From assembly GCF_054482595.1 (NCBI RefSeq), contig NZ_CM137008.1: a stretch of DNA of 64,000 nucleotides; one strand, written 5' to 3'. Positions 9,373 to 51,080 of this stretch are shown one piece after another. Position 1 is the stretch's first letter. Each line of letters opens with the position of its first letter. The notes beneath the pieces were generated by a model that was not told the DNA's origin, made no database searches, and worked only from the letters and a program-made list of their open reading frames with translations. The position numbers and the translations under genes are program-made.

Positions 9373-9460
9373 GGTGAGGTGTCCGAGTGGCTGAAGGAGC
9401 ACGCCTGGAAAGTGTGTATACGGCAACGTATCGGGGGTTCGAATCCCCCCCTCACCGCCA
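9373..9460 (+). tRNA. serX: tRNA-Ser (anticodon GGA), class II with long variable arm, 88 nt
   Basis: GGTGAGGTGTCCGAGTGGCTGAAGGAGCACGCCTGGAAAGTG...GGTTCGAATCC...CTCACCGCCA; 7-nt anticodon loop CUGGAAA; T-loop GGTTCGAATCC; encoded CCA. Confidence 0.92.
9447..9460 (+). repeat. attL core: 14-bp direct repeat (ccccctcaccgcca) forming the serX 3' end
   Basis: Identical 14-mer recurs at 51067..51080 in the same orientation, immediately before a terminator-like hairpin that would be the native serX downstream sequence. Confidence 0.65.
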
Positions 9461-9466
9461 GATTAT

Positions 9467-9499
9467 AAGCGCATGTTATTGTTTAACATGCGCTTTTTT
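9467..9499 (+). terminator. rho-independent terminator immediately after serX (island-encoded side)
   Basis: Hairpin agcgcatgtta / taacatgcgct followed by ttttttatt. Confidence 0.55.
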
Positions 9500-9609
9500 A
9501 TTTATCCTTCCGGACAGTATGCCATCGGGTATGCCATCTGAAACCGGTTTATATGCCCCGCGATCATATCTTATCGGACAATTTCCGATCTTTGAGCATA
9601 CTGGCAAAG

Positions 9610-10452
9610 CTATACTGCCAGCATGTCAGGATAGTGTTTTGCGATAATATCATTCAGTCTGTCAACCAGTTCTGGTTTCCTGAACGTGATGTGTGCGGAG
9701 CCCTTCTTAAAGTATCTGATGCTGAACATCTCATCTTCATAGTCCTCTTTACCCTGAACAGACTGGATGTGGTCATCCAGACGAAGGGTGATGTTTTCCC
9801 GGTTGTCGGGGATCGGTTTGCCGCTGAACAGGTGCAGCATTCTTTCCAGGTCGGCAAGTCGATCTACCTGGTGCCCGGTGATAAGATGAAATCCCCACCG
9901 GTCCCATCTCACCAGATTGTTGACGATAATTTTACTGCCAAATTTACAGGGGCAATTAGTTTTGTAATTCCAGCTCAATCCCCTGAAGACGTTGATCACC
10001 CCTCGCTCAAACACTTCATCTTTGTTCTGGTGCAGTTGTTCAAATGTGCTCAGAATGTTCGCTTCACTGACTTCCGGAAAATTATCATACTCCAGTGACC
10101 GGTACCATGTATCACGGGCCTGTGCATCCATTAAGGAAAGCATCCCTGAACGTTGCATCAGGTCACGCCAGATTTCTCGGTCAAGATTCCGGGTAATGGC
10201 TTTCATTGCTGTTTCGGGTTTCTCCATCAGCCAGCAACCGCAGCGAAAATCCTGTTTCATGGCCCAGTCCGGGGCGGTTTTACCTCCAATACTTTCTGTC
10301 ATTGATGAGATTTCAGCCAGTTGCCGGATAAGTGTGTCGATTTGCAGCAGTGTACTCTTTCGTACAGCCAGAATGTGGCTGACTGAGGTTGAGCAGATAA
10401 CGTCCGTATGCCCGTTGACCACTTCCGGATGGGAGAGTGTGATTGCAGACAT
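9610..10452 (-). CDS. conserved island protein, probably DUF4942 family (280 aa)
   Basis: ORF track; position downstream of the CbtA toxin module at the island end as in CP4-like elements. Family name recalled, not searched. Confidence 0.5.
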   Translation of the reverse strand: MSAITLSHPEVVNGHTDVICSTSVSHILAVRKSTLLQIDTLIRQLAEISSMTESIGGKTAPDWAMKQDFRCGCWLMEKPETAMKAITRNLDREIWRDLMQRSGMLSLMDAQARDTWYRSLEYDNFPEVSEANILSTFEQLHQNKDEVFERGVINVFRGLSWNYKTNCPCKFGSKIIVNNLVRWDRWGFHLITGHQVDRLADLERMLHLFSGKPIPDNRENITLRLDDHIQSVQGKEDYEDEMFSIRYFKKGSAHITFRKPELVDRLNDIIAKHYPDMLAV

Positions 10453-10536
10453 AATTGATATTCCTTTTGGTTTATAAACGAAAACGCCAGCCGTATTCAG
10501 GCTGGCGTCAGTGGAATGAAGTCTGGTGAGTAAGAC

Positions 10537-10734
10537 TCACCTGTTCTGTTGCAGAAGCTGCTGTTGGCGCAGGGTACGGATATCTTCCCTGGCCTGTTCA
10601 ATGCAGGGCAGCAGTGCTGCTGAATCCGTTTTATCCTCATCGTTGTCGAAGATAATCCCTGATTCGCAGTCAATATTGTCCTGCAGCCACGCAATCAGAA
10701 TATCCAGCGCCGTTTCTGTGGTTAATGATTTCAT
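10537..10734 (-). CDS. small conserved hypothetical protein (YeeW/YpjJ-like position, 65 aa)
   Basis: ORF track; acidic small protein co-oriented with neighbours. Confidence 0.35.
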   Translation of the reverse strand: MKSLTTETALDILIAWLQDNIDCESGIIFDNDEDKTDSAALLPCIEQAREDIRTLRQQQLLQQNR

Positions 10735-10750
10735 GTTGTGAATTTACGGG

Positions 10751-11239
10751 TTACCAGTCGAAAGTGGGGAACCCCGGCAGACATTCTGCGCCGGCGTCCA
10801 GATGAATGAGACTGACGCCATAACGCCGGGTGAGAGTGACGACCAGACGACGGAACGTTCTTGACAGGCCCAGGCGTTTAAGCCGCAGAACCGGGTACGA
10901 CCATGCATCGGTACGTAACAGATAGCCGCTGCCTGTAAAATGAATCCATTCTGTTTCGCCGTCGTCATTAGTCTGGTGTGACAGCGAGTACAGCCAGGCG
11001 TTGTCCGTTTCCGTGATATGTGCGGTACTGCAACGTATGCCGGTAAGGGTTGTTAACGGTGGTGGTGTACTGGTTGACTGCTGGTCGGATTTATCGACCA
11101 CGCGGAGTGAATAACCGTTTTCAGAGACCTTGTTAATCAGTTCAGCGAGATTAACACCATCGACGTCAACGACAATGCGCCCCATGTTCAGCGCCTGCAT
11201 GTTAATGCTGTCGGCTTCCGGCGTCAGGGAAAGGTTCAT
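10751..11239 (-). CDS. hypothetical protein downstream of cbtA (possibly DUF5983-like, 162 aa)
   Basis: ORF track; start overlaps the cbtA stop by 4 nt, suggesting co-transcription. Confidence 0.4.
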
Positions 11240-11619
11240 TGTTTCGCCTCCTCCGGATGCTTGCCCAGGGTAATGTTATTTACCATTCTGTAATTGTCCC
11301 GGGTCATCAGGCCGGTCGCCCTGCGAGCCCGGAGAATATCAATGCTGTTGATTAACTGAGACGACGGGGCTCCTGCGCTGAATCCCGGCTGGTCAGTTCG
11401 TACCAGCACGTATTTTTCAACGAGAAAGTTCACCGCGTCACACAGTGAAATCCCTGCCTCAATATGCTGCTCAATCACACGTTCATCAGCGAACGGTGTG
11501 TCATTCAACGTAAGGCCATAGTGCTGGTCCAGCAGTCGGGTGAGCAGTGTCTGCCAGATTTCAACCGGAGACGGGCAGCGCGATGCCGCCCGTACGTGTG
11601 TGTCGGGTAATGTTTTCAT
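11236..11619 (-). CDS. cbtA: type IV toxin, CbtA/YeeV/YkfI family (cytoskeleton-targeting)
   Basis: Internal start MKTLPDTHV... followed by [54 protein letters not shown], close to recalled YeeV. Confidence 0.8.
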
Positions 11620-11695
11620 ACTGAAGGTTTTCCTGATATGCAGAGATGAAAAATGGAAAAGTGGCGTGGTGAAAGCACCAGGCCGGAGCAGAAGG

Positions 11696-12076
11696 CTATT
11701 CCGGAGGGTTACTTTCCGTTTCGGTCGCAGGATAAACAGCCAGATAAACGTAACCACAGGAGCCGAGGGTGTCGGCATCGCAGGTCAGCCCTTTCGCATA
11801 CAGCGTGACGGTATGCTGATGCCGGGGATTCAGTTCACCGCTGGTGAGCATGAGTTCCAGTTGTTTCATCAGCAGTGGAAAAGCCTGGTCCAGATGGTAT
11901 GCATCCGCATTGCTGAACCGGCCTCTGATACCGGCGCGGTCTGCAAGGTAATGCAACCGGTTACCCTCCTGCACCAGACGTGCCCCGAAACAGGGCGTCA
12001 CGATGCAGGGCAGCCCCCACCAGGGGCGGTCTTTGTTGTCGTCGGGAAGCGTTGTCCCGGGGAGTGTGTCTGACAC
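11696..12076 (-). CDS. cbeA: type IV antitoxin, CbeA/YeeU family
   Basis: GTG start at 12076 preceded by gagga; product [54 protein letters not shown]..., close to recalled YeeU; 76 bp upstream of cbtA. Confidence 0.8.
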
Positions 12077-12086
12077 GATAAAATCC

Positions 12087-12770
12087 TCACAGAAAATCGG
12101 TGAATGATAGTTTAACGATGACGGGGCAGCCGGCGCGCAGACCGGCTTCGGTGAAGGTATATTCGTTGATGAGAAGGGCCTCATCCACAGCGGCGTCTGA
12201 GGTCAGCCAGTCGTACTCGTTTTCCAGTTGACGGTACAACCAGAAGGCCAGGTCGCGCAGGGCTTCGCTGACTGCGGCTTCCGCATCGGTTGTCATAGCC
12301 TGACCAGTCGGACTGTTCCGGGTGACGGTGATATCCATGCAGTACGGATGGCAGTAACGTCCCCGGTGGTGGATTTCAGCCTGCAGTTGCCAGAAGTTAC
12401 GCTTCTGCACCGCCTGCAGGGCATCCGCGATACGATGAAGCTCACGGTCCTGCGGGGCATACACCCCGACTCTCCTGGCTGTTGCTGACTGCCAGTGCCA
12501 GCGTCCTTCAAAACAGGCTCCGTCCCCCTGGCTGCAGAATCCGCTGAACCAGATGCACGGCTCTTCCATAAACCTGCCGTTGCTGAGCCGGATAACACGC
12601 TGGCGGAGGTCAATCCCGAAAATGCCACAGACCTCCCTGAAGTCCCCATACACGTTTTCATACCAGTTGCTGTCAGCATGATGCTGACGGTACCAGTCGC
12701 GGGCTTTTTCCTGTGCGGTGGAGGATAGCTCATTCAGTGTATACACAGTGGTGGTGATAATTCTGCTCAT
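12087..12770 (-). CDS. hypothetical protein (227 aa) inserted between yeeT-like and cbeA; family not recognised
   Basis: ORF track; tightly packed between 12789 and 12076; Trp/Cys-rich (CIWFSGFCSQGDGACFEGRWHW, HHRGRYCHPYC). Confidence 0.5.
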   Translation of the reverse strand: MSRIITTTVYTLNELSSTAQEKARDWYRQHHADSNWYENVYGDFREVCGIFGIDLRQRVIRLSNGRFMEEPCIWFSGFCSQGDGACFEGRWHWQSATARRVGVYAPQDRELHRIADALQAVQKRNFWQLQAEIHHRGRYCHPYCMDITVTRNSPTGQAMTTDAEAAVSEALRDLAFWLYRQLENEYDWLTSDAAVDEALLINEYTFTEAGLRAGCPVIVKLSFTDFL

Positions 12771-12788
12771 CAGAGTGCCCTTACTGAC

Positions 12789-13010
12789 TCAGTTCAGAGT
12801 GACGTTCATCAGCCGGACATACGGGCCAAAACTGTCCTTACGGCGTTCAGCAAACACGGCCAGCACACCGGGAATATCCTGCACTTCACGACCGGTATAC
12901 GCCTCAGCACTGCCGTGCCAGCGGTATTTGCCGGTACAGAAAGGAAAAAGACGGGATGCCGGATGTTGTTGGTGAATACGCATGGCTTCACCACGGGTGA
13001 TGATTTTCAT
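12789..13010 (-). CDS. yeeT: YeeT/YkfH-family protein (DUF987, 73 aa)
   Basis: MKIITRGEAMRIHQQHPASRLFPFCTGKYRWHGSAEAYTGREVQDIPGVLAVFAERRKDSFGPYVRLMNVTLN, near-identical to recalled K-12 YeeT. Confidence 0.75.
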   Translation of the reverse strand: MKIITRGEAMRIHQQHPASRLFPFCTGKYRWHGSAEAYTGREVQDIPGVLAVFAERRKDSFGPYVRLMNVTLN

Positions 13011-13072
13011 AGTGTGATACCTCTGAAGACAGAAGATAAAAGTGCAAACAAGCGTGATGTGGTTGTGACGGG

Positions 13073-13549
13073 TTAAAGCAGACCATGTTCGGCAAAGGAG
13101 AAAACCTGGTTGCCACCGACTATCAGATGGTCCGGCACCCGGATATCCACCAGGCCCAGTGCCTGTACCAGACGTTCCGTGATAAGGCGGTCTGCCTTGC
13201 TGGGTGTGACTTCACCGGACGGGTGATTGTGCGCCAGCACCACGGCAGCGGCATTGTGGTACAGGGCGCGTTTAATCACTTCCCGGGGATGGACTTCCGT
13301 GCGGTTGATGGTGCCGGTGAAGAGGGTTTCACCGGCAATCAGTTGATTCTGGTTATTCAGATACAGCACCCGGAATTCTTCACGCTCCAGTCCCGCCATG
13401 TTCAGAATCAGCCATTCCCGTGCCGCACGGGTGGAGGTGAAGGCCACGCCGGGTTCATGAAGATGGCGGTCCAGAGTTTTCAGGGCCCGCAGAATGAGAC
13501 TGCGCTCGCCGGGCGTCATCTCTCCGGGCAGAAAGGAAAGCTGCTGCAT
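13073..13549 (-). CDS. yeeS: RadC-like JAB-domain protein (YeeS/YkfG family)
   Basis: Internal start MQQLSFLPGEMTPGERSLILRAL...; JAB metalloprotease motif HNHPSGEVTPSKAD. Confidence 0.8.
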   Translation of the reverse strand: MQQLSFLPGEMTPGERSLILRALKTLDRHLHEPGVAFTSTRAAREWLILNMAGLEREEFRVLYLNNQNQLIAGETLFTGTINRTEVHPREVIKRALYHNAAAVVLAHNHPSGEVTPSKADRLITERLVQALGLVDIRVPDHLIVGGNQVFSFAEHGLL

Positions 13550-13564
13550 TGTCCCTGCCTCCAT

Positions 13565-14050
13565 TCAGTCGATGATGCGCATAATGGCGCTGCATTCCGG
13601 ATGCTGCAGGGCGTAATCCCGCAGCCGGTAATAATGGACCGTCATGGCATAACACTCCGTACGACAGGCGTGATGACTGTACGTCATCAGACAGGCAGCA
13701 ATGCCGGCAGCTTCCGGACTCATTTCAGCGCGGTTACCGTTCATGGCATTGAACAGTACCCATGTTTCGTCATCATCGTCATCCGGTTCGGGTGCCATAA
13801 ATGCCCCGCCGTTGTTCAGGGTGTACAGATTCCAGATACCACCGCAGTAGTCTTCACACAGACGGTCCATCCAGCCGAAGACACGGGGCTCCAGGGCCAC
13901 CCACTGTGGAATGAGGCCAAAGTGCTGCGGCCAGAAGCTGATGCGCTGTTCATCAGGGACTATGGTGGCAACCAGCTGAGGCTGGTCATTCCCTGATGCA
14001 GCGGTTACGGAAACAGAAGGAGTGGTGGAATTATGCAAGACGGTTGTCAT
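13565..14050 (-). CDS. antirestriction protein, KlcA/ArdB-like (YafX/YfjX family)
   Basis: ORF track 161 aa; acidic stretch PEPDDDDDETW; conserved position upstream of radC-like gene in CP4-type islands. Confidence 0.6.
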   Translation of the reverse strand: MTTVLHNSTTPSVSVTAASGNDQPQLVATIVPDEQRISFWPQHFGLIPQWVALEPRVFGWMDRLCEDYCGGIWNLYTLNNGGAFMAPEPDDDDDETWVLFNAMNGNRAEMSPEAAGIAACLMTYSHHACRTECYAMTVHYYRLRDYALQHPECSAIMRIID

Positions 14051-14141
14051 GAGATTATTCCTTATAAAAAGTAAATGAATGGAAGAAATCCCGGGGGAAG
14101 GGACAGACGTGAGTCAGAACTGCGCTTTCAGGGAAACGGCA

Positions 14142-14960
14142 TCAGCGCATACTCTCCAGCAGCGTTTCAGCCATCACCCACAATGCGCGGTTGAGCTTAA
14201 TGTCGGTGTCGATGCTGTGAATGGCACGGGTATGGATACGTTTTCCTCTGGCACTGCGACCGGAAATCCCGCCTTTCAGCATATTCTCCTGAATGGTCTG
14301 ATAAGCACTCCACAGGTCCTTACCGTAATCCTCCCGGCGTCGTGGCGTCAGAATGTCGGCGGTGGTGACGGGCCGATGTTCGTCACCATAACGGTAAGTC
14401 AGTGCCGCCTGTGCCAGCGCCTGGCGTGCCGGTGGCGGCAGAATCAGCGACTGCATGGCATCACGCTTTTCCTCAATCCGGTCAAAAACCCCCACCACCT
14501 CGTAAGCCCCTTCAATAACTTTCTCCACCACATTTCCCCGGTGCGGAACACGCACTTCCCCCAGAGACTGACCACAGACGCATCCGTTCTGACAGACGAA
14601 CCTGAAGTAACCCGGCAGCATCTGGTAGCTGGAGGTACCGTCATGGGAGTTGAGCAGAATGATTTCAGGGACATGTTCTCCGTTTATCTCTCCGGCCCGC
14701 CGCAGACGCAGCATATGTTTTGTGTATCCCCGGCGGCCCGGGTCGCGCACACGGGTCTGGCAGGCGAAGAATGGCTGAAAGCCTTCCCGCTGCAGGCTTT
14801 CCAGTACGGTGATGGTGGGAATGTACGCATATCGTTTACTGCGGGAAGTATGCCGGTCTTCACCGAAAATACTGGGAACATAGTGCATCAGTTCTTCGTG
14901 TGTCAGCGGACGGTCACGGCGTATCTGGTTCGTATAACCAAAACGACTGGCTAGTCGCAT
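14142..14960 (-). CDS. DUF932-domain protein (YafZ/YfjQ family, 272 aa)
   Basis: MRLASRFGYTNQIRRDRPLTHEELMHYVPSIFGEDRHTSRSKRYAYIPTITVLESLQREGFQPFF..., matches recalled YfjQ/YafZ. Confidence 0.7.
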   Translation of the reverse strand: MRLASRFGYTNQIRRDRPLTHEELMHYVPSIFGEDRHTSRSKRYAYIPTITVLESLQREGFQPFFACQTRVRDPGRRGYTKHMLRLRRAGEINGEHVPEIILLNSHDGTSSYQMLPGYFRFVCQNGCVCGQSLGEVRVPHRGNVVEKVIEGAYEVVGVFDRIEEKRDAMQSLILPPPARQALAQAALTYRYGDEHRPVTTADILTPRRREDYGKDLWSAYQTIQENMLKGGISGRSARGKRIHTRAIHSIDTDIKLNRALWVMAETLLESMR

Positions 14961-15236
14961 AATTTGCTCCTTATGAATGAGTTAGCGGTATAAATGAAAA
15001 AGCCGCGTCTCCCGGAGAAGACACGGCCTGACAGATGAAATGAATGACGTTTATTGTCTGAGAAGCCCTTCACTGGCGAGCTGCGTATTTTTATGGAAGG
15101 AGATCACCCAATAACCCCATCGGGATCGGGTAATAACCGGCCAGACTGTGATCGATTCAGATGCCATTTGGCAGCAAAAGAGCCTTCGGCAATAAACGTG
15201 ATGTACAACCCGGCATATCTGTTACTCCCTGAAAGT

Positions 15237-15265
15237 AAAAGGCCCCGGTCATTATGACCGGGGCC
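15237..15265 (-). terminator. rho-independent terminator downstream of flu
   Basis: Hairpin ggccccggtca / tgaccggggcc (15241-15265) followed on the minus strand by ttttacttt. Confidence 0.6.
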
Positions 15266-15286
15266 TGAAGGGGAGTGACCTGATTA

Positions 15287-18133
15287 TCAGAAAGTCACAT
15301 TCAGCGTGGCCTGACCGTTATAGCCTTCGGCGCTGCTGCCGCTGACGCTGTGGGCATAACCGGCCTGAACGCCCAGGGTGATATTTTCCCGGACACGGGC
15401 TTCCAGTCCGGCCTGCAGGTCCAGTGACGTGCCATTCTGGGACGGTGAGAACGTCATGTTACTGCCGGCGGCGGCTGTCCCCATGCTCATGTCACCCCGG
15501 GAACTGAAGGTGCGGATAACAGAAGGCTGTACCCACCAGTTCACCGGCAGTTCACGCACACGGTGTTTTGCACTGTCGCGCAGGGTGTCACGGGATGAGG
15601 TGCCTTCACCAAAGCTCATATCGTTGTGGCTGCCCAGACGGAAGCCGGCACGCATATGTTGTGCACTGCCATGCCCGAACTTCACATAACCGGCGTTATC
15701 CTGGCCGTCATCCAGGGAAAGTCCCTGCCAGGTGTACTGCAGTTGTGGTTCCAGCATCAGGTTGTCAGTGATACTGAAGGGCAGACCGGTTTCCAGTGAG
15801 CCCAGCCAGCCCCAGCCCCGGGCGCGGAAGTCGTTATTGTCCGATGACGCTTTCATGCTGTGGCGGGTTCCCTGTGCCATAATGTCAGCCCACAGGCCGG
15901 AGGACGTGTGTACCAGATTCAGGTATCCGCCCAGGCTGCCGGCATCATCCCGGACCGTGCCGGCGCGGGAGCCGTCATCATCCTTAACATCAACGGAAGA
16001 ATGGCCAGCAGCACTATATACCCCCGCGGTCACAGACATACCGGCAACCTCTGTTCTCAGCAGGTCACTCTCCAGACGGACGAAGCCATAGCTGCCGCTG
16101 CTTTCCGGCGTGGCCCCACGGGCAATACCGCCGTTGTTATCGTGACCGAGATGACCGCCCTGAATGCTGAGACGGACGCTGTTATTTTCACCGTTTACAC
16201 CGGTCTGATGGCTGCGGGAGCCTGCCAGAATCCGGTCATAGTCCATTGCCTGTGTCAGCATGGAAGCATACAGGGGGACTTCAGCACGATAAGCATTTTC
16301 ACTGCGCAGGTACCAGTCTTCATCGCTGTCACGGTTCAGGGTGTAGTTAAAGGCACCGGCCTGAAGCGGGCGACTCAGGGCAAACGCACCTTCTTCTGTG
16401 GTGGCACCATTCTGTGCATCCACAACCCGGATACCCTGTCCGGAAGTTGCCACCCCGAGGTTACTGTTTCCGACATTTGTGAACGCAAGCCAGGTTTTGC
16501 CGGTTGCCTGACCACCATTAATCACCAGCTGGTCAGAGGCATTGCTGCCATCAAGGCGAACACGCATATTGATGGTGCCACCCTGACCGGTGAGGTTACT
16601 GGTGGTCAGTTTATGGAACGTTACCGGGGCGTCGCCTTTTGCAACAGCACGGCTCAGGACGGCATCCTGTGTCGTCTGATTATCAAAGCGAATCTCCCCT
16701 GCGTTAACAATATCGCCGGTACTGACCACATCACCATTCAGTACCATGCTGGCGCCTTTACTGAGCTGTGTTCTGCCACTCAGACTTCCCCCGGCAGCCA
16801 GCGTCAGTGTTCCACGATGTCCGACAGTGGTGTTGCCAGCCTGTCCCCCGGCATTAACCGTAAAGCTGCCGCCATTTTCCAGCAGCAGGCCGCTGGCCTG
16901 ACCGGATATGCCATCAATACTGAACTTACCGCTGGCATTGGTCCCCTCAACAGTGGCACCACTGTCTGCAATCAGGGCACCACCGGATGTCATGGTGACA
17001 CCTGTCGCCTTACCACCGGCAGACACTGCCAGGGTACCGCCGTCATCCACCCGTGTTTTCTGCGCTGAATGACCCTCCAGTACATCCAGACGACCGCCGG
17101 ACTCCAGAACAACACCGTCAGCCTTACCGTTTTCCACCGCGAAATTGCCCAGACGGTTGCTGCCGGTGACGGTTGCCGCCGTACTGGTGACCAGTGCGCC
17201 TCCCTGCTTCAGGGTGACATTCGTGGCTGTACCACCGGCGTTCACCTGCAGTTTGCCTTTCTGGTTAACGGTGGTGAAATCCGCCAGACCACCTTCCTTG
17301 ATAATCTGCCAGCCGTCACTGTTCACAACAGTGTCAGACGTTGTACCGCCGTTGTGTACATACTGGTTACCGCCATTCAGCGTGGTATCCAGTGCGTGGC
17401 CATGTACCGTCTGGTCGCCGCCGGCATAAACCACAGTGGTATTTGCTGTTCCTTCAACAGTCACAATCTGACGACCATTTTTATTGATGGTGGTACGTAC
17501 GGCATTTCCGCGAACAAACTGCCCGGTATCACCATTTTCTGCATCCGGTCCTCCTTCTGCGCCGGTATTCACAACGGTGTCTGTTGCCACTGCGCCGGGT
17601 TTGACGACCTGCCAGCCCTTATCATTAATGACGGTTCCTGTGGCTATCGCACCTTCATGCATCCACTGCTCGCCACCATTCAGCGTGGTGTTCAGTGCCA
17701 GTCCCTTCAGGCTTTGTCCGCCTCCTTCATTGATTATTGTGTCTGTAGCCTTTCCCCCGGCACCTACAAACTGGAGCCCGCCGCTGCTGATGGTGGTATT
17801 ACTGGCTGTGCCGCCATCCTGTACCCATTGCCCGCCGGTATTGGCCTCGTTATCCGTCCCATACTCCAGCCCGGTACTGATGGTCATTCCGTTGGTCGTA
17901 CCGAAGACAATCTGGTTGTCATGATTTGTCAGTGTTCCGCCGTTCACGGTTTCTCCCGCCTCTACAACCGTGTCAGCAGCCAGTGCCGGGACTGGCGTGA
18001 CAGCAGCAAGAGACAGCGCAACCGCCACACCGGCGCGTTTTCCCCGTGAGCGGGCCAGTTCGGAAGCCACCACCAGGGTGCCCGTAATGTGATTCCATAC
18101 CAGCCTGTAGCTGGTGTTCAGATGTCGTTTCAT
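15287..18133 (-). CDS. flu: antigen 43 (Ag43) self-associating autotransporter adhesin
   Basis: Start MKRHLNTSYRLVWNHITGTLVVASELARSRGKRAGVAVALSLAAVTPVPALAADTVVEAGETVNGGTL (ATG 18133 with aagga RBS); repetitive beta-helix passenger; C-terminal beta-barrel ending ...QATLNVTF. Confidence 0.9.
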   Translation of the reverse strand: MKRHLNTSYRLVWNHITGTLVVASELARSRGKRAGVAVALSLAAVTPVPALAADTVVEAGETVNGGTLTNHDNQIVFGTTNGMTISTGLEYGTDNEANTGGQWVQDGGTASNTTISSGGLQFVGAGGKATDTIINEGGGQSLKGLALNTTLNGGEQWMHEGAIATGTVINDKGWQVVKPGAVATDTVVNTGAEGGPDAENGDTGQFVRGNAVRTTINKNGRQIVTVEGTANTTVVYAGGDQTVHGHALDTTLNGGNQYVHNGGTTSDTVVNSDGWQIIKEGGLADFTTVNQKGKLQVNAGGTATNVTLKQGGALVTSTAATVTGSNRLGNFAVENGKADGVVLESGGRLDVLEGHSAQKTRVDDGGTLAVSAGGKATGVTMTSGGALIADSGATVEGTNASGKFSIDGISGQASGLLLENGGSFTVNAGGQAGNTTVGHRGTLTLAAGGSLSGRTQLSKGASMVLNGDVVSTGDIVNAGEIRFDNQTTQDAVLSRAVAKGDAPVTFHKLTTSNLTGQGGTINMRVRLDGSNASDQLVINGGQATGKTWLAFTNVGNSNLGVATSGQGIRVVDAQNGATTEEGAFALSRPLQAGAFNYTLNRDSDEDWYLRSENAYRAEVPLYASMLTQAMDYDRILAGSRSHQTGVNGENNSVRLSIQGGHLGHDNNGGIARGATPESSGSYGFVRLESDLLRTEVAGMSVTAGVYSAAGHSSVDVKDDDGSRAGTVRDDAGSLGGYLNLVHTSSGLWADIMAQGTRHSMKASSDNNDFRARGWGWLGSLETGLPFSITDNLMLEPQLQYTWQGLSLDDGQDNAGYVKFGHGSAQHMRAGFRLGSHNDMSFGEGTSSRDTLRDSAKHRVRELPVNWWVQPSVIRTFSSRGDMSMGTAAAGSNMTFSPSQNGTSLDLQAGLEARVRENITLGVQAGYAHSVSGSSAEGYNGQATLNVTF

Positions 18134-18339
18134 CAGCTTTTCCTTACAGAGGGTGAATAAAAAAGCCGGTACCCACAAATGTGGATACCGGCAGGTACAA
18201 AACAGCATGGTCAGATAAAGTGGTTTTTCCCGGACATAAATGCTTCCCCTCTCTCATCCGCCAGAGAAGTATCAGTCCGTTGTGTGCAATTCCGTTCTGC
18301 ATGATGAAGAGATTCAGCTGCCTTTTCGCAGACCATTAA

Positions 18340-18395
18340 CCACCATAAACGATCGATGACAACGATCGATACCTGTTTTATCGATCGTTTTATTC
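18340..18395 (-). promoter_or_regulatory. agn43 phase-variation switch: three clustered GATC (Dam) sites overlapping the OxyR operator
   Basis: GATC at 18351, 18364 and 18383 within 36 bp, ~220 bp upstream of the flu start; matches the known Dam/OxyR switch architecture. Confidence 0.7.
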
Positions 18396-18504
18396 TATTA
18401 ACAGCAAGGCAGTCACGCAAGGGAAAGAGGTGGGTATGAGGTGTTTGTATCATGTTTTCAGTTGGTTAACGCAATGTAATCAGGCATTTCCCCTGGCAGA
18501 ATGT

Positions 18505-19377: not shown

Positions 19378-19640
19378 ACATGTATTCCCGGTGAAAAAAG
19401 ACAAAACCCCGCGCACCGGAAAGGTGGCGGGGGATTCACGGAGATAATATCTGTCTGAAATTATTTAGAATGCACCTGGTGCACTGCAAAGGAAAGGCAA
19501 TATTCCGTTCCTCCTCCTTGTCGTGAATACCCCAGGTATCTCACAATGTACACCGACTTACTCCGGGGCTGCCTGAACCACAAGATTGCTGTAGAATTGC
19601 CCCCAATGATTCAGGTCCAAACCAGGAAAATGGATTAAAA

Positions 19641-37427: not shown

Positions 37428-37441
37428 CTTATTACCAATTA

Positions 37442-38961: not shown

Positions 38962-39258
38962 AAATTATTCTACAAAAAATTCCGTACGTAATATGTATCA
39001 AACAGAATTATCGATAAGATCTGCTGTGCTCGAGAGACGAACAGCTATTCCCATAAACAAAGACCAATTGTAACATCATTTTGCACAAGCAATATGTAAA
39101 CAATCTTTCCTGCGCATTAGCACTCCGGAATCGGAGATGATCGCTAACCTCAGTAACCGCTGAATGAAAATGTGATTCTCGTGGAAGATACATAAACCAT
39201 CCTTTAAGATTGTAAATAAAATGTTAAATCGAACAATGAGTTTATTCTAAAATTCAGA

Positions 39259-39270
39259 CACGCTACCGCC
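39259..39270 (-). promoter_or_regulatory. ops element (GGCGGTAGCGTG), RfaH recruitment site, in the leader of the wzm operon
   Basis: Plus-strand cacgctaccgcc is the reverse complement of the canonical 12-nt ops; ~300 bp upstream of the wzm start in the transcribed orientation. Confidence 0.75.
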
Positions 39271-39899: not shown

Positions 39900-40324
<425 letters not shown>

Positions 40325-42885: not shown

Positions 42886-43744
42886 ACGTCCCTGACATGT
42901 TGTAGCCCAGGTCTTCTTCGTTGATAAAGTTCACATCCAGAGGATGGATACTTCCTGTAGCCCGTAATATCGTCGATTCAATATCCTGCACATTCATCGG
43001 GATCACCGATGCAAGAAAAGCCCATTGATCAGAATAAGGCTGGAAATTAATATCAACAAAAACGCTTCCCCCCGATGCACGCGGTCTTTTTTGCAGAGGT
43101 AACGCGATAAGATTACCAAATCCTCCTTTTGGCATAGTATCCTGATTAGGAAATAATCGGTCATAAGAACTCAATTGCAGCTGTCGGGTCCGGCTGCACG
43201 TATAGCTAATAATAGCAGTCCCCAGACGGCGAGCTTCGCGGGCCGAAACTCGTGAAGCAAAAAATATCCAGACATGCGCTCCCTGACGTGAGCGGGATAT
43301 TTCCAGCGCAGCAGGTACACTCAGCTCATCACAGGCTCGCATGAACGCGGATGCATCCTTCTGCCATTCAGCTTTATCAAAATCAACAGCCAGAAAATAA
43401 CAGGAATCATCTTCCAGCAACGGATATAACCCGGCAGTATGCGTGCCTGCCAGATGCTGGTAGATGACAAGATCAGATACAGGGAGTAACTGACGGTGCG
43501 TACAGTCCCCGCATTTTATCCGGGGTTTACCGCATATTCTCGCCTGCCATTCGTTAGCGCAGGCAGGAGAGTACCCTGATTTGCCGCTGGTTTTACTTTC
43601 CCAACGAAGGGCCCATATATCATCACGCCCACGAAACAACCGACGAAATAATGCAACCTTCTCGTCGGTGGATAATACGGAAACGCGCTGCACAGGGCTC
43701 GGCGGTTTACGTCGCCATTCCAAGTAATGAGACCAGACGGGCAT
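42719..43744 (-). pseudogene. primase-polymerase (AEP superfamily)-like protein, probably C-terminally truncated by the IS66 remnant
   Basis: N-terminal ~285 aa with DxD (LAVDFD) and sxH (RQGAHVWIFF) primase-like motifs and a C-x2-C pair; the last ~60 codons of the track ORF are antisense read-through of IS66 orf2. Confidence 0.45.
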
Positions 43745-43947
43745 TTTCTGCCCTCAATGCAGCTAATTCATCGCTGTCAGATTTATGAACCATATTCGTT
43801 ACCTGTATCCGATCCACTGAGGCACCACGGCAGAAATTCGGGTCCCCTACACTGATGACAAAGCGCCCCGCCCTCTTCTGCCTATTAACTCAAGCACCTC
43901 CCAACAACTTACAGAAACTTAATTCTAATACCTAATACAGCTGTAAT

Positions 43948-44511
43948 TCAGTTGTGTCGTGGTCGGCCCCGGTTACTTTTTTCGGGAAGCCTGCTACGGC
44001 CCAGAATAATACCGTGTTCTTTCTGATCCTGTTTAGCCAGGTAGCTGAGGGCGTAACGTAAGTCGTCTACTGCGGACTTATCACTATAGTGAATCACGTG
44101 ATCGATACGCACCGGGTATTTATCTTTAGCCCGGCACAGATGAAAATAACCCTCCCCTTCCGTGATCCGCCTCCAGATATCCCCCAGTTGCCTGGATATC
44201 TGATAAGAGTTCTTGTGACGTTGCCCATCCAGATAGCCGATAAAATGAATATGAAGCCCTTTGTCTGGTGTATATTCCATAACCCAGTAATATCCTGCCA
44301 ACATCGTCTGGGTTTCGCTAAGTAAACGGTATATTTCCATACACATACTGTGCTTACAGGAATGCCCGAAACTGGGCGTGTCTTTCCTGTAGGCAAAATC
44401 AATTCTGAAAGGTAACAGTTTAGAAAAACGTTGAAACAATCCCTCCATGTGTTCATTCACATCTTTCAGAATCGCGAAATTCATTTCGTAATTGGGATTG
44501 GCATTATACAT
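43948..44511 (-). CDS. hypothetical protein (187 aa), possibly YfjJ/YagK-type (inovirus Gp2-like)
   Basis: ORF track; HIHFIGY motif; position in an integrase/AlpA/DUF3987-type module; family assignment uncertain. Confidence 0.4.
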   Translation of the reverse strand: MYNANPNYEMNFAILKDVNEHMEGLFQRFSKLLPFRIDFAYRKDTPSFGHSCKHSMCMEIYRLLSETQTMLAGYYWVMEYTPDKGLHIHFIGYLDGQRHKNSYQISRQLGDIWRRITEGEGYFHLCRAKDKYPVRIDHVIHYSDKSAVDDLRYALSYLAKQDQKEHGIILGRSRLPEKSNRGRPRHN

Positions 44512-45642: not shown

Positions 45643-45678
45643 CTGCTATTGTTGCTAGCCGGCTAGCAACAATAGCAG
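45643..45678. repeat. perfect 36-bp palindrome (18+18, no loop) just downstream of the 607-aa gene
   Basis: ctgctattgttgctagcc followed by ggctagcaacaatagcag; no adjacent U-tract on either strand. Confidence 0.6.
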
Positions 45679-45720
45679 GGATATACAAACATCGGATGCC
45701 AAAAACACGTTCCGATAATA

Positions 45721-47544
45721 TCATCGAGGATCTGACTGGTTGTTTTTAGTATCATCACCACAAATGATGGTTAATGCGTTGTAGATCAGTCTGCGTCTGT
45801 TCTTGTTTTCAGCATTATTTCCATACAACATCATGACGTTTTTAATATCATCAACCGGTGATATTACATAATCAACCAATACGCCAAGCTTCTCAATACA
45901 TTGCAGTAAAGTATATTTGTGTCTGCCCGTAAATAATCCTATCAGGTTTTCTTTACTTTCACGACTGGATAATATTTTGTTCTCTGTAATTAATTCAGCC
46001 AACGTTTCACCATCGTAAACACGTTCTTTATCTATCAGAATATTTATCTTATCTAACGCCCTCTCTACATTATCAAGAAGACCTGTAATATACGGAGGCT
46101 GAATATCTGACTTTGTACTAATATTTGCAAGCATCGAATTATACATTTTAATGACACGCATCAGAGTAAAATTATTCGCATCATATTGTATTTCATCTTC
46201 ATTATACGCAGGATCCGTCACGACCCTTAAGTCCATAAATGCATCCTGATAAGCTTTTACATAATCAAGTAATTCGAACAGTGAACCATGCTTTATTTTC
46301 TCCCTGTTTAATTTGATCTCCAGCGCTATCCTGAGAACTGAAAAAGCGCCGGGAAGATACCCAGAAGGTAACTCGTATTTTGGGGATTCATCATAAAACC
46401 GAAGAGCTTTGTGGAGTTTGTTCCGCCGAATCAGATAAATAAGGACGGCCAGTAACATGTAGCACCTGGTCACATAACCACGGGCATTCTGCAACTGTTC
46501 AAAATAATTAATAATGTTTTCCAGATATACATCATCATAACTTTTCTTATCAGAAAGATTAAACACCATATCTTTTAAAGATTCGATATATTCTTGTGAT
46601 TTATCATCAAGTGACACAATATAACGAGTTAATGCTCCTTTGGGGCCACTCTCAAACTCATGAAACCGTTCAAGTAATGCTCTTGCATAAGGCGTTGTGT
46701 CAAAAATATTAAAATCATAAAGATAGCGTGCAGCGTAGCCATACAACCCATGTACCCAAAGCCCTTCTCTTATCAGCACTCTGAGATAATATGCAATACT
46801 GTCAAGTATCTTTACCTTCCGTTGCATATCAAGCAAAATACTTAATGAATAAAATGCATAATAGAACTTGTCAATGTTGTTGAGTATTCTGTCCAGCTCA
46901 CTCTTATCAAGCTTCTTCTCTCTGTAATCCTTCTTGTATTCATTCTTACAGGCCTTTATATATTGTTTCATAAGGCTCTTCCTTTTACCGTACCCTTTTC
47001 GAATAGTTCCCTGGTATTTTCCCAGCTCATACATTTTTCCGTTTTCCCGAAAATCTTCTCTGTTAAATCCCAGTTCAGCAAGATACTCCCGGAGATAACG
47101 TTTAACGGCAGCCTCATCGCTTTCTGTACCAGAGTAATCCAGGCAGGGACAATATGATTTTTGCAAAAAATTATAGATATGATAATAAAACCCTGTTTCA
47201 TTCTCCGGACGATATGTGTTATATATATCCAGCACAATAAAAACAACTCCAAAGCTTTTCAGAAAATAGTTACGGATATATTCGGACTTTAATGTTGAAT
47301 ACACAGGGTAAGAATTCATCATGTAATAAAAATATTCATACCGGGAAAATATAATTCGCCGTTGTTCCAGACTATACACCCCTTCAGCATCAATAATTTG
47401 ACTGAGCTCATTATAACGTTGATCCCAGAATCTTTGATGCGCTCCAAAATCAGTACTCTTCCGCTTATCTCTCGGACTCTCTCCTTCCTTAAACAACTCA
47501 AAAACTGTACAAATATCATACAAAAGATTTGTAAACATGCGCAT
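45721..47544 (-). CDS. hypothetical protein (607 aa), AT-rich, no recognisable catalytic motif; divergent from alpA
   Basis: ORF track; Lys/Tyr/Asn-rich, largely helical-looking sequence; no Walker A, HKD, HNH, DDE or HEPN-like motifs recognised by eye. Confidence 0.6.
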   Translation of the reverse strand: MRMFTNLLYDICTVFELFKEGESPRDKRKSTDFGAHQRFWDQRYNELSQIIDAEGVYSLEQRRIIFSRYEYFYYMMNSYPVYSTLKSEYIRNYFLKSFGVVFIVLDIYNTYRPENETGFYYHIYNFLQKSYCPCLDYSGTESDEAAVKRYLREYLAELGFNREDFRENGKMYELGKYQGTIRKGYGKRKSLMKQYIKACKNEYKKDYREKKLDKSELDRILNNIDKFYYAFYSLSILLDMQRKVKILDSIAYYLRVLIREGLWVHGLYGYAARYLYDFNIFDTTPYARALLERFHEFESGPKGALTRYIVSLDDKSQEYIESLKDMVFNLSDKKSYDDVYLENIINYFEQLQNARGYVTRCYMLLAVLIYLIRRNKLHKALRFYDESPKYELPSGYLPGAFSVLRIALEIKLNREKIKHGSLFELLDYVKAYQDAFMDLRVVTDPAYNEDEIQYDANNFTLMRVIKMYNSMLANISTKSDIQPPYITGLLDNVERALDKINILIDKERVYDGETLAELITENKILSSRESKENLIGLFTGRHKYTLLQCIEKLGVLVDYVISPVDDIKNVMMLYGNNAENKNRRRLIYNALTIICGDDTKNNQSDPR

Positions 47545-47632
47545 CTGCTCTGATCTCCGGTTGGTTTCCGTTTTATCACAGGGGACATTCTGGCCTTAAC
47601 GTAGCAAATTAATGACATAGCCTTCAACTCAC

Positions 47633-47893
47633 ATGGAGAACAATATGTCAACCCAGACCGGACATTTTTATACCCCCTCACGCATCCTGCGTATGGCTGA
47701 ACTTACCCGACTCCTTGGTATATCAAGATCGACCATCTACGAAAAAATGAATCCGGCATCAAAATACTACGATGCCACCTTTCCCCGGCCTGTCCGGCTT
47801 GGGAGTTCGGCTGTAGGCTGGCGGGCATCTGCCATTGATGAGTGGTTAACTTTACATACAACACCAACCAGATCCGTAACTAAGGATAAATAA
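47633..47893 (+). CDS. alpA: AlpA-family phage transcriptional regulator (excisionase-like)
   Basis: ...ILRMAELTRLLGISRSTIYEKMNPASKYYDATFPRPVRLGSSAVGWRASAIDEWL resembles recalled CP4-57 AlpA. Confidence 0.75.
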   Translation: MENNMSTQTGHFYTPSRILRMAELTRLLGISRSTIYEKMNPASKYYDATFPRPVRLGSSAVGWRASAIDEWLTLHTTPTRSVTKDK

Positions 47894-47908
47894 GGAAAAC
47901 TGTACGCC

Positions 47909-49474
47909 ATGACAAAATTATCCCCCCCTGAACTTGACATAACTAAACTGCCTGACAGGTGCCAGGCATTACTTGATGAAATGCATGAAGAAACGGGAAT
48001 AAGCCGTGAAATACTGCTGTCTGTTATGCTGACGGTCAAGGCTGTCTCGGTCCAGGATACGCATGAAGTTGAACTTTCTGGAGGGCAGCGTACCAGTCTT
48101 CAGATATATATGTGTCTTTCATCAGCATCAGGCAGTGGAAAAACCTCTGCCTGCGCAAAATTAATCGCCCCTGTTCATGAAACAGAAGAAGAACTACATC
48201 AGGCATATATCGACGATAAAAAAAACTATGATCGCATGATGGAAATGTGGACAACAGATAAAAAAATCCTGGAGCGGAGATATAAAAAGGAAATGGAAAG
48301 ATCCCCGGAAAATGCTGCTGCTGCACGAGCAGCGCTTGAAAAGTGTATAGCAAATAAACCCGTACCTCCCGTACAACAGGTTCTCATCGTGAATGACGCG
48401 ACACCAGAAGGGATAGCTTTGAAACTCAGCCAGTCACCTTCTCTTCTGTTGCTGTCTGATGAAGGAGGAACTATTCTGGATAAGCGTTTCGAACGCAAAT
48501 CGGCGCTGTACAACACATTATGGAGTGGGCAACCAGTCACCGTAGAACGGGCATCCAGACCCGGGTTCCGGGTAAAGGATTCCCGTCTCACTATGCTTAT
48601 ACTGACTCAACCGGTAATATTTGATAAGTTTTTTACTCTCACTGGCGACCAGATCCGGGGCAATGGCTTTCTGGCCCGGGTGCTATTTTGCGAACCCGGA
48701 GCAAATAAAATAATGACGACAGAACCGCATACTGCCACTCCTGTTGTAACGCAGCAATGTGCAACCTGTTTTCATGAGAAAAGTTTTGGCAGTCAGATCA
48801 GAGACTCTCTGAGAGCGTCCCGGGAAAGGCGTGCAAAAGGTGAGCAACGCATCCGCATGACATTATCACACGCAGCATCCCACGATCTGGAAATCTTTCA
48901 CGAAGAAAATATGAGTGCTGTCAGGCAGAACCCACGTATGACCACTTTCGAAGACATTATCGTCAGGAAAAGAGAACAGGCTGTTCGAATAGCCGCACTT
49001 CTGGAGCTGGAGAACAATCCACATGGTACAGTAATAACACGAGAAAGTATCAATAGTGCTATTTATCTCGTTGATTTTTATTTTCAGCATCTTATATCCA
49101 AACTGGAATCACTTCGGGAAATATCTCCTGCAGAAAAACTGGATAAATGGCTCAGAGAAAATATCATCCGGGTAAAAGGATACGAATATCAAAAAAGCCA
49201 TATACTACAATATGGTCCATATGCTCTCAGGAATAAATGTGTTCTTGATGAAGCACTTGATATACTTGCAGAACAGAAAAAAATCGTAATTGATTATTCA
49301 ATCGGCCAAAAAATCATTTATATCGGTGACGCGATTACACCTTGTGAATTAGCAAATGAGGCAAACATCCCGATAATGGAGCGTGGAATGTTTATAGTCT
49401 GTTGGGACCATAAGCTGAATAAGTACAGAAATGAAGAACAGACTAAAATATGGAACATAACTACAAAAAATTAA
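47909..49474 (+). CDS. DUF3987-family protein (YfjI-like, 521 aa)
   Basis: ORF track; immediately downstream of alpA as in CP4-57 (alpA-yfjI); family recalled, not searched. Confidence 0.6.
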   Translation: MTKLSPPELDITKLPDRCQALLDEMHEETGISREILLSVMLTVKAVSVQDTHEVELSGGQRTSLQIYMCLSSASGSGKTSACAKLIAPVHETEEELHQAYIDDKKNYDRMMEMWTTDKKILERRYKKEMERSPENAAAARAALEKCIANKPVPPVQQVLIVNDATPEGIALKLSQSPSLLLLSDEGGTILDKRFERKSALYNTLWSGQPVTVERASRPGFRVKDSRLTMLILTQPVIFDKFFTLTGDQIRGNGFLARVLFCEPGANKIMTTEPHTATPVVTQQCATCFHEKSFGSQIRDSLRASRERRAKGEQRIRMTLSHAASHDLEIFHEENMSAVRQNPRMTTFEDIIVRKREQAVRIAALLELENNPHGTVITRESINSAIYLVDFYFQHLISKLESLREISPAEKLDKWLRENIIRVKGYEYQKSHILQYGPYALRNKCVLDEALDILAEQKKIVIDYSIGQKIIYIGDAITPCELANEANIPIMERGMFIVCWDHKLNKYRNEEQTKIWNITTKN

Positions 49475-49517
49475 AGTTCCCGTCTTTTATCATTCAGTTA
49501 CCAACCTGAATATCTGA

Positions 49518-49557
49518 AACAATGCCAGACATCGGTTACAAACTGGCATTGTTTTTA
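49518..49557 (+). terminator. rho-independent terminator after the DUF3987 gene
   Basis: Stem aacaatgccag / ctggcattgtt with 14-nt loop, followed by ttttta. Confidence 0.5.
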
Positions 49558-49697
49558 TCATTCAATTTATAAACTACAATATTACGTATTATTTTTACAT
49601 TTATGTCATTGCAAATATCAGACAAACAAGCATTATAACTCAATAAGTATATTTTTCGTGATTACAGACGACATCTGCAAATCTGTGAGATGTGATT

Positions 49698-50906
49698 TCA
49701 TCGCTGGTTTTCCATAATCTGAGACATCACATAATCCGCCCATGCCTGCATCATCGGTATACGCTGATCCAGCAGATCAGTCCGGTGATATGCCGCCTCA
49801 ACCTTATTTTTCAGCGTATGGGCAAGCGCCCTTTCCGCCAAATCCCGCGAATATCCCTGTTCGCTACACCAGTCCCTGAATGTTGAACGAAAACCATGTG
49901 CTGTAGCCACTCGTCCGGGTATATCACTGATGGCCTTCTTTTTACGCAGAAAACTCGTCAACACCATATCTGAAAGGATCTGCTGCTTTCTGGGAGAAGG
50001 AAACACCAGTTCGTCATGCAGACCACGTATATTTTCCAGAACGTGAATGGCCTGTCGGGATAAAGGAACACGATGCTGTATCCTGGCTTTCATTCTTTCT
50101 GCGGGTATCGTCCATATCCGCTTATGAAAATCAATTTCAGCCCAGCGCATTCCCCTTGCTTCGCCCGAGCGGGTTGCTGTCAGTATCACCATTAATAACA
50201 GTGCCCGGGTAACATTATAAGGTTCATCTGTATACACACTGGTCGCCACAAAAAGCGGTAACTGCCTCCAGGGCATTGCCGGCTGGTGTTCATCACGTCC
50301 TCTTGATTGCTGTGGAAGCAAATGATCAACCACATCAACAGGATTCGCCACACAAAAACCATGCGCCCAGCCCCACTGCATAACAACATGAATGCGCTGT
50401 TTAACCCGGCTTGCCGTTTCTGACAAGGTTAACCAGACTGGACGCAGTGTTTCTGCCACGTCCGCAGCCGTAATCGAATCCAGCGTTTTTGCTCCCAGTT
50501 GAGGAAACGCGTAATTCTCAAGCGTCGATAACCACTGCCTTACATGCTTTGGATTTTCCCATCCAGGAGACAGTTCTGCATGTACACGCCTGGCTGCATC
50601 GGCAAATGTTGGGATAACAACTTTTTCAGCTTCAGCCTTTTTAATCTCCAGAGGATCATCACCTGCAGCAAGTTGCTCTCGCATTATCCGGGCAGTACGT
50701 GCAGCTTCAGCAATACTGACCTCAGGATAAGTTCCCAATCCAGCATTACGCCTTTTTTGTGTCACCGGACTTACATAACGAAAAACCCATTTACCCCTCC
50801 CCTTTACTGAAGAAGGATGAAGAGTCAGTCCTGTAATTCCCCCATGGGGCAATGGTTTGTCATCAGGTTTGATATGCCTTGCTTTAGTATCCGTCAATAC
50901 TGCCAT
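49698..50906 (-). CDS. int: P4-type tyrosine integrase (402 aa)
   Basis: N-terminal MAVLTDTKARHIKPDDKPLPHGGITGLTLHP...YPEVSIAEAARTARIMREQLAAG (DUF4102-like arm-binding domain); C-terminal catalytic HGFRSTFRDW and AAYHRTDLL (Tyr). Confidence 0.9.
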   Translation of the reverse strand: MAVLTDTKARHIKPDDKPLPHGGITGLTLHPSSVKGRGKWVFRYVSPVTQKRRNAGLGTYPEVSIAEAARTARIMREQLAAGDDPLEIKKAEAEKVVIPTFADAARRVHAELSPGWENPKHVRQWLSTLENYAFPQLGAKTLDSITAADVAETLRPVWLTLSETASRVKQRIHVVMQWGWAHGFCVANPVDVVDHLLPQQSRGRDEHQPAMPWRQLPLFVATSVYTDEPYNVTRALLLMVILTATRSGEARGMRWAEIDFHKRIWTIPAERMKARIQHRVPLSRQAIHVLENIRGLHDELVFPSPRKQQILSDMVLTSFLRKKKAISDIPGRVATAHGFRSTFRDWCSEQGYSRDLAERALAHTLKNKVEAAYHRTDLLDQRIPMMQAWADYVMSQIMENQR

Positions 50907-51066
50907 ACGCTAATTCCTGTTACTCTGGTATGCCATTCAGTATGCCATTAGTCTCTCACTTCACTAAGAATACATTAGATAACATCGGACAGAAAAAATT
51001 GTAATGCATTGTTTATAATAAGGTTATATAACACTCCCGGATTAAGTCAGATTTATTTCAGGCGGT

Positions 51067-51080
51067 CCCCCTCACCGCCA
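51067..51080 (+). repeat. attR core: 14-bp direct repeat of the serX 3' end
   Basis: ccccctcaccgcca identical to 9447..9460; followed by the displaced terminator. Confidence 0.65.

Follow-up and report, generated by a model that had tools for sequence, protein, structure and literature searches.

The genomic islands OI-43 and OI-48 of Escherichia coli O157:H7 strain EDL933 are flanked by perfect 14-bp repeats, TGGCGGTGAGGGGG, which correspond to the final 14 bp of serW/serX; the Shigella flexneri SRL PAI has identical repeats (Bielaszewska et al. 2011, PMC3064760). Complete excision of OI-43 and OI-48 was detected in approximately 1.8e-3 and 2e-4 of cells, respectively, and the integrase is drawn at the ycdU-side, cryptic-serX end (PMC3064760). 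The SRL PAI integrase inserts at serX or serW (PMC2297512), the precise deletion of that island requires its integrase (PMC7545054), and its excision is stimulated by the AlpA-like protein Rox (PMC2704930); its gene numbering assigns orf1 to int, orf3 to rox and orf56 to a DUF4942 gene (PMC6980539). Here we describe an island with the same terminal repeat in a 64,000-nt stretch of contig NZ_CM137008.1 (assembly GCF_054482595.1), which is referred to over its full length as the window and to which all positions refer. The 14-mer found at both island ends, CCCCCTCACCGCCA, is the sequence of which the published repeat TGGCGGTGAGGGGG is the reverse complement. The 41,606 bp between the two 14-bp cores very probably constitute a single integrative island of the SRL-PAI/OI-43/OI-48 family, inserted site-specifically at the 3' end of serX. 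The att/integrase system of this family has already been published; as a member of the family the island is new, or has at least had no explicit description, and its cargo differs.

Boundaries of the island and its empty site

The initial annotation had placed the island boundaries at a 14-bp direct repeat of the serX 3' end, and both positions are supported by exact searching and by tRNA prediction. In the window CCCCCTCACCGCCA is present in two copies, at 9447-9460 and 51067-51080, both on the + strand, and allowing one mismatch adds no further copy. The chance expectation is 0.02 and none of 100 shuffles contained two matches. The tRNA-Ser(GGA) gene at 9373-9460 (+) is the sole tRNA called by ARAGORN in the window, and the first copy of the repeat represents the final 14 nt of this gene, serX, comprising 3 nt of the T-stem, the 3' strand of the acceptor stem, the discriminator base and the CCA. 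The genes named as flanking backbone, ghrA (8201-9139, -) and ycdU (51273-52259, -), are identified as such in the RefSeq annotation of CFSAN061769, which likewise carries this island at serX.

An island-free junction, against which the initial annotation had proposed to align the locus, was sought in a set of 5,426 complete E. coli genomes using a query that joined the 600 bp up to and including the tRNA 3' terminus to the 600 bp following the second repeat. Strain XH990 matches this reconstructed empty site in one piece over 1200 of 1200 positions, with ycdU located 192 bp past serX, in agreement with the reading of the two repeats as attL and attR. The flanks are contiguous in at least 889 of the genomes, a lower bound because many K-12-like strains have additional repeat units at serX. 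XH990 and AW1.7, with empty sites, have the hairpin and T-run that follow the second repeat (Table 1) directly 3' of serX, and strain SMS-3-5 has them 3' of serW. As this is the position of the hairpin in island-free strains, it is the native serX terminator, as had been proposed, and the island has moved it 41.6 kb away from its tRNA. At attL its place is taken by an island-borne intrinsic terminator that is kept in O157 and in strain 3059. The identity between serW and serX continues for about 40 bp past the tRNA and includes the terminator hairpin (window positions 51081-51121 compared), so the duplicated attB region reaches beyond the gene.

The 14-mer by itself is not diagnostic of an attachment site because native copies of it exist. 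In AW1.7 and other K-12-like strains without an island, two tandem units of 181 bp, annotated as RtT small RNA, lie 3' of serX. Each unit ends in AATCCCCCCCTCACCGCCA, the last 19 nt of the tRNA, followed by the terminator; CCCCCTCACCGCCA is thus natively triplicated at serX in these strains. These repeats raise the alternative that the second 14-mer in the window is a native RtT-type duplication and that the true boundary lies elsewhere, which we regard as extremely improbable. The sequence immediately left of the second copy is GGCGGT, as opposed to CAATCC in the RtT repeats, and the sequence continuing leftward from it is an arm conserved in the O157 island as well. In addition, XH990 joins the flanks exactly at the 14-mer, and RtT units are absent from the window between the second repeat and ycdU. 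The diagnostic element for attR is here the island-side context of the 14-mer.

The RtT pseudo-3' ends were also considered as secondary attB sites. A chimeric query of an RtT unit joined to the island attL arm found this junction in 0 of 5,426 genomes at megablast sensitivity, which rules them out at that sensitivity, and every match to the attL arm starts within a true tRNA-Ser. In H77 and H81, which have an island as well as RtT units, the RtT units are kept beyond attR. The absence of islands at the RtT pseudo-ends suggests that the 19 bp in common do not suffice as attB. The RtT duplications of the 14-mer are also a caution for programs that call att sites at serX automatically.

Integrase, attachment-site arms and proposed mechanism

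The island encodes one integrase with an intact open reading frame (ORF), the start of which is 161 bp from the attR core and which reads into the island. Its position beside attR, its inward direction and the convergence of alpA and the DUF3987 gene, both on the + strand, upon it had been described in the initial annotation and are borne out by the ORFs and Pfam matches. The three domains (Table 1), an N-terminal Arm-DNA-bind_3 (DUF4102), a central and a C-terminal catalytic one, together with the R..H-x-x-R..H..Y residues place the protein in the P4-type, CP4-57 IntA-like class, and the catalytic residues R246, H337, R340, H363 and Y373, read from alignments with IntA and the O157 integrase, are intact. 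At the OI-48 position, an O157:H7 integrase with 97% identity lies beside ycdU and attR and likewise reads inward. The identity with CP4-57 IntA is 34% over the full length (E 8e-53). IntF of CP4-6 was ruled out as a homologue of the integrase, with 21% identity over the catalytic domain alone (E 0.015). A segment comprising the integrase and attR is present over at least 80% of its length in 1,258 of the 5,426 genomes (about 23%), among them Nissle 1917.

The genes adjacent to the integrase make up a block encoding a 607-aa protein, an AlpA-family helix-turn-helix protein (RefSeq start at 47645) and a DUF3987 protein. The AlpA-like protein is 80% identical to its homologue on the O157 island and 49% identical to K-12 AlpA, and the DUF3987 protein is 25% identical to K-12 YfjI (E 1e-45). 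For the 607-aa protein, searches of Pfam, NCBIfam and PHROGs resulted in zero matches. A homologue with 30% identity (E 2e-73) lies beside the O157 integrase, and in Nissle 1917 a 605-aa hypothetical protein, likened to it by size and position alone, occupies the same int-adjacent position; the 607-aa protein is a conserved partner of this integrase family. YfjH was examined as a further homologue and showed no similarity to it. NCBIfam gave no specific name for the AlpA-like, DUF3987, 607-aa and YfjJ-like proteins, and the PHROGs search with six island proteins matched integrase, excisionase and helicase only. A phage satellite of the P4 or PICI type would be expected to have capsid-redirecting, packaging or cos functions next to int, alpA and a primase; no such function was among the PHROGs matches of these six proteins, and there are no morphogenesis genes in the RefSeq annotation of the island.

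The exact 9-mer GTATGCCAT is present in 4 copies in the 64 kb, compared with 0.72 expected, and all of them are on the + strand at the ends of the island, where they form two pairs with 12-bp spacing within each. The attL (P') arm has its copies at 9517 and 9529, to the right of the attL core by 57-69 bp; in the attR (P) arm they lie at 50928 and 50940, to the left of the attR core by 127-139 bp and 22-42 bp upstream of the int start codon. Both attR copies are unchanged in O157 despite approximately 15 substitutions surrounding them; in the attL arm, O157 likewise keeps the copies, and strain 3059 has a single substitution in one of them. Overall the attR arm is about 94% identical to that of the O157 island, with the core conserved, and the attL arm with the DUF4942 gene is 98% identical to O157 and 95-98% identical across O157, O26 and other genomes. 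The paired GTATGCCAT are candidate arm-type sites for the N-terminal domain of the integrase. When the two arms are joined, the predicted attP junction reads ...CAGGCGGT-CCCCCTCACCGCCA-GATTATAAGCGC..., in other notation ...TTTCAGGCGGT-CCCCCTCACCGCCA-GATTATAAGCGCATG..., and CAGGCGGT-CCCCCTC-ACCGCCAG forms an 8-bp imperfect inverted repeat with a 7-bp spacer. This arrangement suggests that the first 7 bp of the identity block represent the overlap region and the last 7 bp a shared core-binding half-site.

In the mechanism that we propose, the P4-type integrase at the distal end would recombine attP, present on the island in its circular form, with attB, a role filled by the 3'-terminal 14 nt of serX or of serW, two identical tRNA-Ser(GGA) genes. 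The N-terminal arm-binding domain of the integrase would bind the paired GTATGCCAT in both arms, and strand exchange would occur in the 7-bp overlap CCCCCTC, flanked in attP by CAGGCGGT and ACCGCCAG. Because attP has the same 14 nt, the tRNA would be rebuilt at attL and would then be served by the island-supplied terminator, with the second 14-mer and the native terminator left at attR beside int. The AlpA-like protein, by analogy with Rox, likely acts as the excision factor. As to mechanism, the boundaries add nothing to what is known, the att/integrase system being a textbook one. The practical value of the locus is that of a clean, delimited example that offers in one place an exact empty site, the att arms of both sides and a tRNA terminator supplied by the island.

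Probable movement between serX and serW, and the O-antigen cargo

In E. coli SMS-3-5 the same island is located at serW (infA-serW-island-clpA), in the same orientation relative to the tRNA. Comparison of this copy with the window resulted in 2 substitutions and one 1-bp indel in 41.6 kb, whereas the backbone left of serX differs between the two strains by 177 substitutions in 9,460 bp (1.9%). Of the best 25 matching genomes, 14 match from the ghrA flank onward and are of the serX type. In the other 11 the match begins a little ahead of the tRNA, the pattern also shown by SMS-3-5, for which alone the serW site has been confirmed by annotation. A near-identical island, IS (insertion sequence) debris included, at two attB sites in diverged lineages implies recent placement at both, and points to recent site-specific movement of the island. 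The serX gene of SMS-3-5 is itself unoccupied, and its right flank contains a DUF2726 gene and phoH in place of ycdU, pgaABCD and efe; in this strain the genes normally found to the right of serX have been deleted or replaced.

Several observations weigh against the assignment to a mobile SRL-PAI/OI-43/OI-48-type island. IS elements are abundant and several pseudogenes are present. The block of the 607-aa, alpA and DUF3987 genes (45721-49474) is inverted compared with O157, Nissle and CP4-57, in all of which alpA and yfjI are co-directional with int, and the inversion might change regulation; inverted repeats bounding the block were sought and none was convincing. No sigma-70-like promoter for int was found in 50700-51300. 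The 405-aa S. flexneri integrase that falls in the same 90% cluster, with 96% identity, is presumably that of the SRL PAI, judging from species and length and not from a labelled record. Finally, the assignments of the arm-type sites and the overlap are based on repeat statistics and limited conservation, the relatives being about 94-98% identical.

The many IS copies and fragments, the inverted alpA-DUF3987 block and the lack of a predicted int promoter, together with an orphan hsdM, an AEP primase pseudogene, a frameshifted ISL3 transposase and the absence of conjugation or packaging genes of its own in the RefSeq annotation, would also be compatible with a fixed, decayed remnant, in which the repeats are the scars of one ancient integration and the element is immobile in all current strains. 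We consider this unlikely. The 41.6-kb unit with its IS debris is 99.99% identical at two tRNA genes whose backbones are 1.9% apart, and in the other serX carrier, CFSAN061769, the flanks differ at 23 of 2,233 positions (1%) and the island by 4 substitutions and 2 indels. Moreover, the integrase ORF and catalytic residues are intact, and integrases that are 96-97% identical are experimentally active. Integrase-dependent integration and excision of the present island would follow from the literature on these related enzymes, and by the same analogy the island may be active in this strain today.

The composition of the island bears on whether it is one element. Its G+C content varies as a mosaic between 36% and 57%, with modules that are separated by IS blocks, and the identity to O157 is mosaic across the recombination module as well (integrase 97%, AlpA 80%, 607-aa protein 30% and DUF3987 protein 25%). 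Such a pattern could reflect a tandem array of two or more independent elements, a CP4-like element and a polysaccharide island, and we hold this to be very improbable given the single integrase, the lack of a third 14-mer even with one mismatch and the near-identity of the whole interval, as one unit, at serX and serW. The mosaicism is better explained by IS-mediated capture of cargo inside one island.

On the basis of its genes, the cargo corresponds to the Klebsiella O1 O-antigen gene set, rfb2a plus wbbY and wbbZ, and the O-antigen ORFs at both cargo loci are all intact. The WbbY- and WbbZ-like proteins belong to 90%-identity clusters whose listed members are mostly from Klebsiella pneumoniae. 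In the rfb2a-type cluster, which has a low G+C content of 37-47%, the WbbM-like protein shares 79% identity with K. pneumoniae WbbM (PDB 6U4B), and Glf scores 775 bits against the K. pneumoniae mutase UGM (PDB 2BI7). A solved structure was also looked for in the case of the WbbY-like protein, with distant GT2 domains as the only matches. In E. coli SMS-3-5 and GD33, wbbY and wbbZ are 99.6% and 99% identical to those of Klebsiella (Kelly et al. 2023, PMC10629545, including its supplement); SMS-3-5 is marked in that study as having rfb2a nearby, the chromosomal locations in E. coli are reported to vary, and co-expression of a second, O1-cross-reactive O antigen is suggested (PMC10629545). The words "island" and "mobile" appear nowhere in the main text of PMC10629545. 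The O1 genes in E. coli are already published, but not as the cargo of an integrative island of serX/serW.

Carriage on a serX/serW island would explain the varying chromosomal locations of the O1 genes in E. coli (PMC10629545). We lean toward the view that the island is an undescribed vehicle that moves the complete Klebsiella O1 gene set between E. coli lineages through serX and serW, and that it has recently done so as one IS-laden 41.6-kb unit. If this is true, horizontal spread within E. coli is open to a target of Klebsiella vaccines and antibodies. The island links a known integration module to medically interesting cargo: strains that carry it may expose an additional O antigen cross-reactive with Klebsiella O1, at which vaccines and antibodies are currently aimed, and the island offers this trait a concrete route between E. 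coli lineages.

The remaining genes of the island are listed in Table 1. The accessory module includes an Ag43 autotransporter at 15287-18133. The hsdM gene is accompanied by neither hsdS nor hsdR, and the methylase is an orphan remnant within the island. Compared with SMS-3-5 and CFSAN061769, the window lacks 1 bp at 41539, and the ISL3 transposase (40585-42203) is thereby split into ORFs of 323 and 216 aa; the deletion reflects either recent mutational inactivation or an error in sequencing. The AEP primase pseudogene (42719-43793; Pfam AEP-TOTE, 5.5e-100) adjoins IS66 tnpB and looks like the remnant of a defence/conflict system.

Table 1. Features of the serX island and its junctions, with positions in the window
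Feature	Position	Strand	Evidence
serX, tRNA-Ser(GGA), attB-bearing, intact after integration	9373-9460	+	ARAGORN; tRNA-Ser annotation in identical genomes
attL core, 14-bp identity block	9447-9460	+	Repeat search; reverse complement is the published OI-43/48 and SRL PAI repeat
Island-borne intrinsic terminator replacing the native one at attL, 12-bp stem and T-run	9467-9495	+	Terminator scan; folding energy (dG) -17.4 kcal/mol, z -5.4
GTATGCCAT pair, attL (P') arm, candidate arm-type integrase sites	9517-9537	+	Repeat statistics, conservation
DUF4942 gene, conserved terminal gene at the tRNA-proximal end of this island family	9610-10452	-	Pfam
CP4-type accessory module: DUF957, DUF5983, CbtA toxin, YeeU antitoxin, DUF987, RadC/JAB, antirestriction, DUF932, Ag43, GTPase	10537-19416	-	RefSeq annotation
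Orphan type I restriction-modification gene hsdM, full-length, abutted by IS1	19641-21903		Pfam N6_Mtase, HsdM_N; annotation
wbbY (740-aa two-domain glycosyltransferase, -) and wbbZ (pyruvyltransferase, +), divergent	22062-25191		90%-identity clusters
IS debris: fragments/copies of IS256, IS5/ISKpn26, IS3, IS903B	25458-31045		Annotation
rfb2a-type O-antigen cluster wzm, wzt, wbbM, glf, wbbN, wbbO and GT2 gene	31047-38961	-	ORFs, composition
ISL3 transposase, IS66 tnpB, TOTE-type AEP primase pseudogene	40585-43793		ORFs, annotation, Pfam
YagK/YfjJ-family gene	43948-44511	-	Annotation; counterparts yagK (CP4-6), yfjJ (CP4-57)
607-aa protein, no family match	45721-47544	-	Pfam, NCBIfam, PHROGs searched
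AlpA-family helix-turn-helix gene, likely Rox-type recombination directionality factor	47633-47893	+	Pfam Phage_AlpA 6.9e-19
DUF3987 (YfjI-like), putative helicase/primase-type replication protein	47909-49474	+	Pfam DUF3987 3e-63; PHROG DNA helicase 2.4e-40
P4-type tyrosine integrase, 402 aa	49698-50906	-	Pfam Arm-DNA-bind_3, Phage_int_M, Phage_integrase
GTATGCCAT pair, attR (P) arm, candidate arm-type sites	50928-50948	+	Repeat statistics, conservation
attR core region: island-derived CAGGCGGT (51059-51066), then 14-bp block (51067-51080)	51059-51082	+	Read from sequence
Native serX terminator, moved 41.6 kb off the tRNA by the island	51086-51121	+	Fold dG -20.4 kcal/mol, z -5.7

Comparison with related islands

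The initial annotation had likened the island to CP4-6 more than to CP4-57. With respect to layout, as given by the K-12 annotation, this holds. CP4-6 runs from thrW (+) through toxin-antitoxin, DUF987, RadC, antirestriction, DUF932 and GTPase genes and cargo to intF (-) at the far end, and in both elements the accessory genes come in the same order and face away from the tRNA, and the integrase is distal, beside a tRNA fragment. With respect to homology it does not hold, the recombination module being CP4-57-like. The distal-integrase layout is shared with CP4-6, whereas an IntF-type integrase and the thrW target are not: CP4-6 is inserted at thrW, its IntF is distant and it has no alpA-DUF3987 pair. 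CP4-57, located at ssrA, is related through all three K-12 proteins compared above (IntA over its full length, AlpA and YfjI) and through its gene order, which from int outward comprises YfjJ-like, GTPase, DUF932, antirestriction, RadC, DUF987, antitoxin and toxin genes. It differs in target and in having intA directly after ssrA, co-directional with alpA and yfjI, whereas the integrase of the present island is 41 kb from the tRNA. The CP4-57 module order in combination with a distal int is that of a CP4-57-like element flipped as a whole relative to the tRNA. The cargo in turn is comparable to the O1 loci of K. pneumoniae, which it matches in gene order and sequence for both rfb2a and wbbY-wbbZ. 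In K. pneumoniae wbbY-wbbZ is unlinked to rfb2a, in contrast to the present locus, where both are on one tRNA-targeting island.

The initial annotation missed the nearest relatives of the island, the SRL PAI and OI-43/OI-48, with which it shares the published 14-bp repeat, the integrase lineage, the serX/serW target and conserved att arms. The O157:H7 counterpart, represented by the tellurite-resistance and adherence islands OI-43 and OI-48 and called SpLE1 in strain Sakai, has the integrase in the same position, conserved att arms with the GTATGCCAT pairs and the attL terminator, and the same 14-bp repeat. It is larger, at about 87 kb, and carries ter, ure and iha as cargo. Its gene order from the integrase is int, a hypothetical gene of about 605 aa, IS1, alpA and yfjI, with alpA co-directional with int, unlike the present island, and the 605-aa and YfjI proteins next to int are only 25-30% identical to those described here. 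The SRL PAI of S. flexneri (66 kb), compared through its published descriptions, with the AlpA-like gene set beside Rox at the level of the protein family, has the same 14-bp repeat, the same serX/serW targets and an AlpA-like Rox. Its int and rox genes at one end and its DUF4942 gene at the other match both ends of the present island. The two islands differ in what lies between these ends, which in the SRL PAI includes resistance genes and the Fec iron system, and in the 41.6-kb island described here the O1 genes, Ag43 and a toxin-antitoxin pair.

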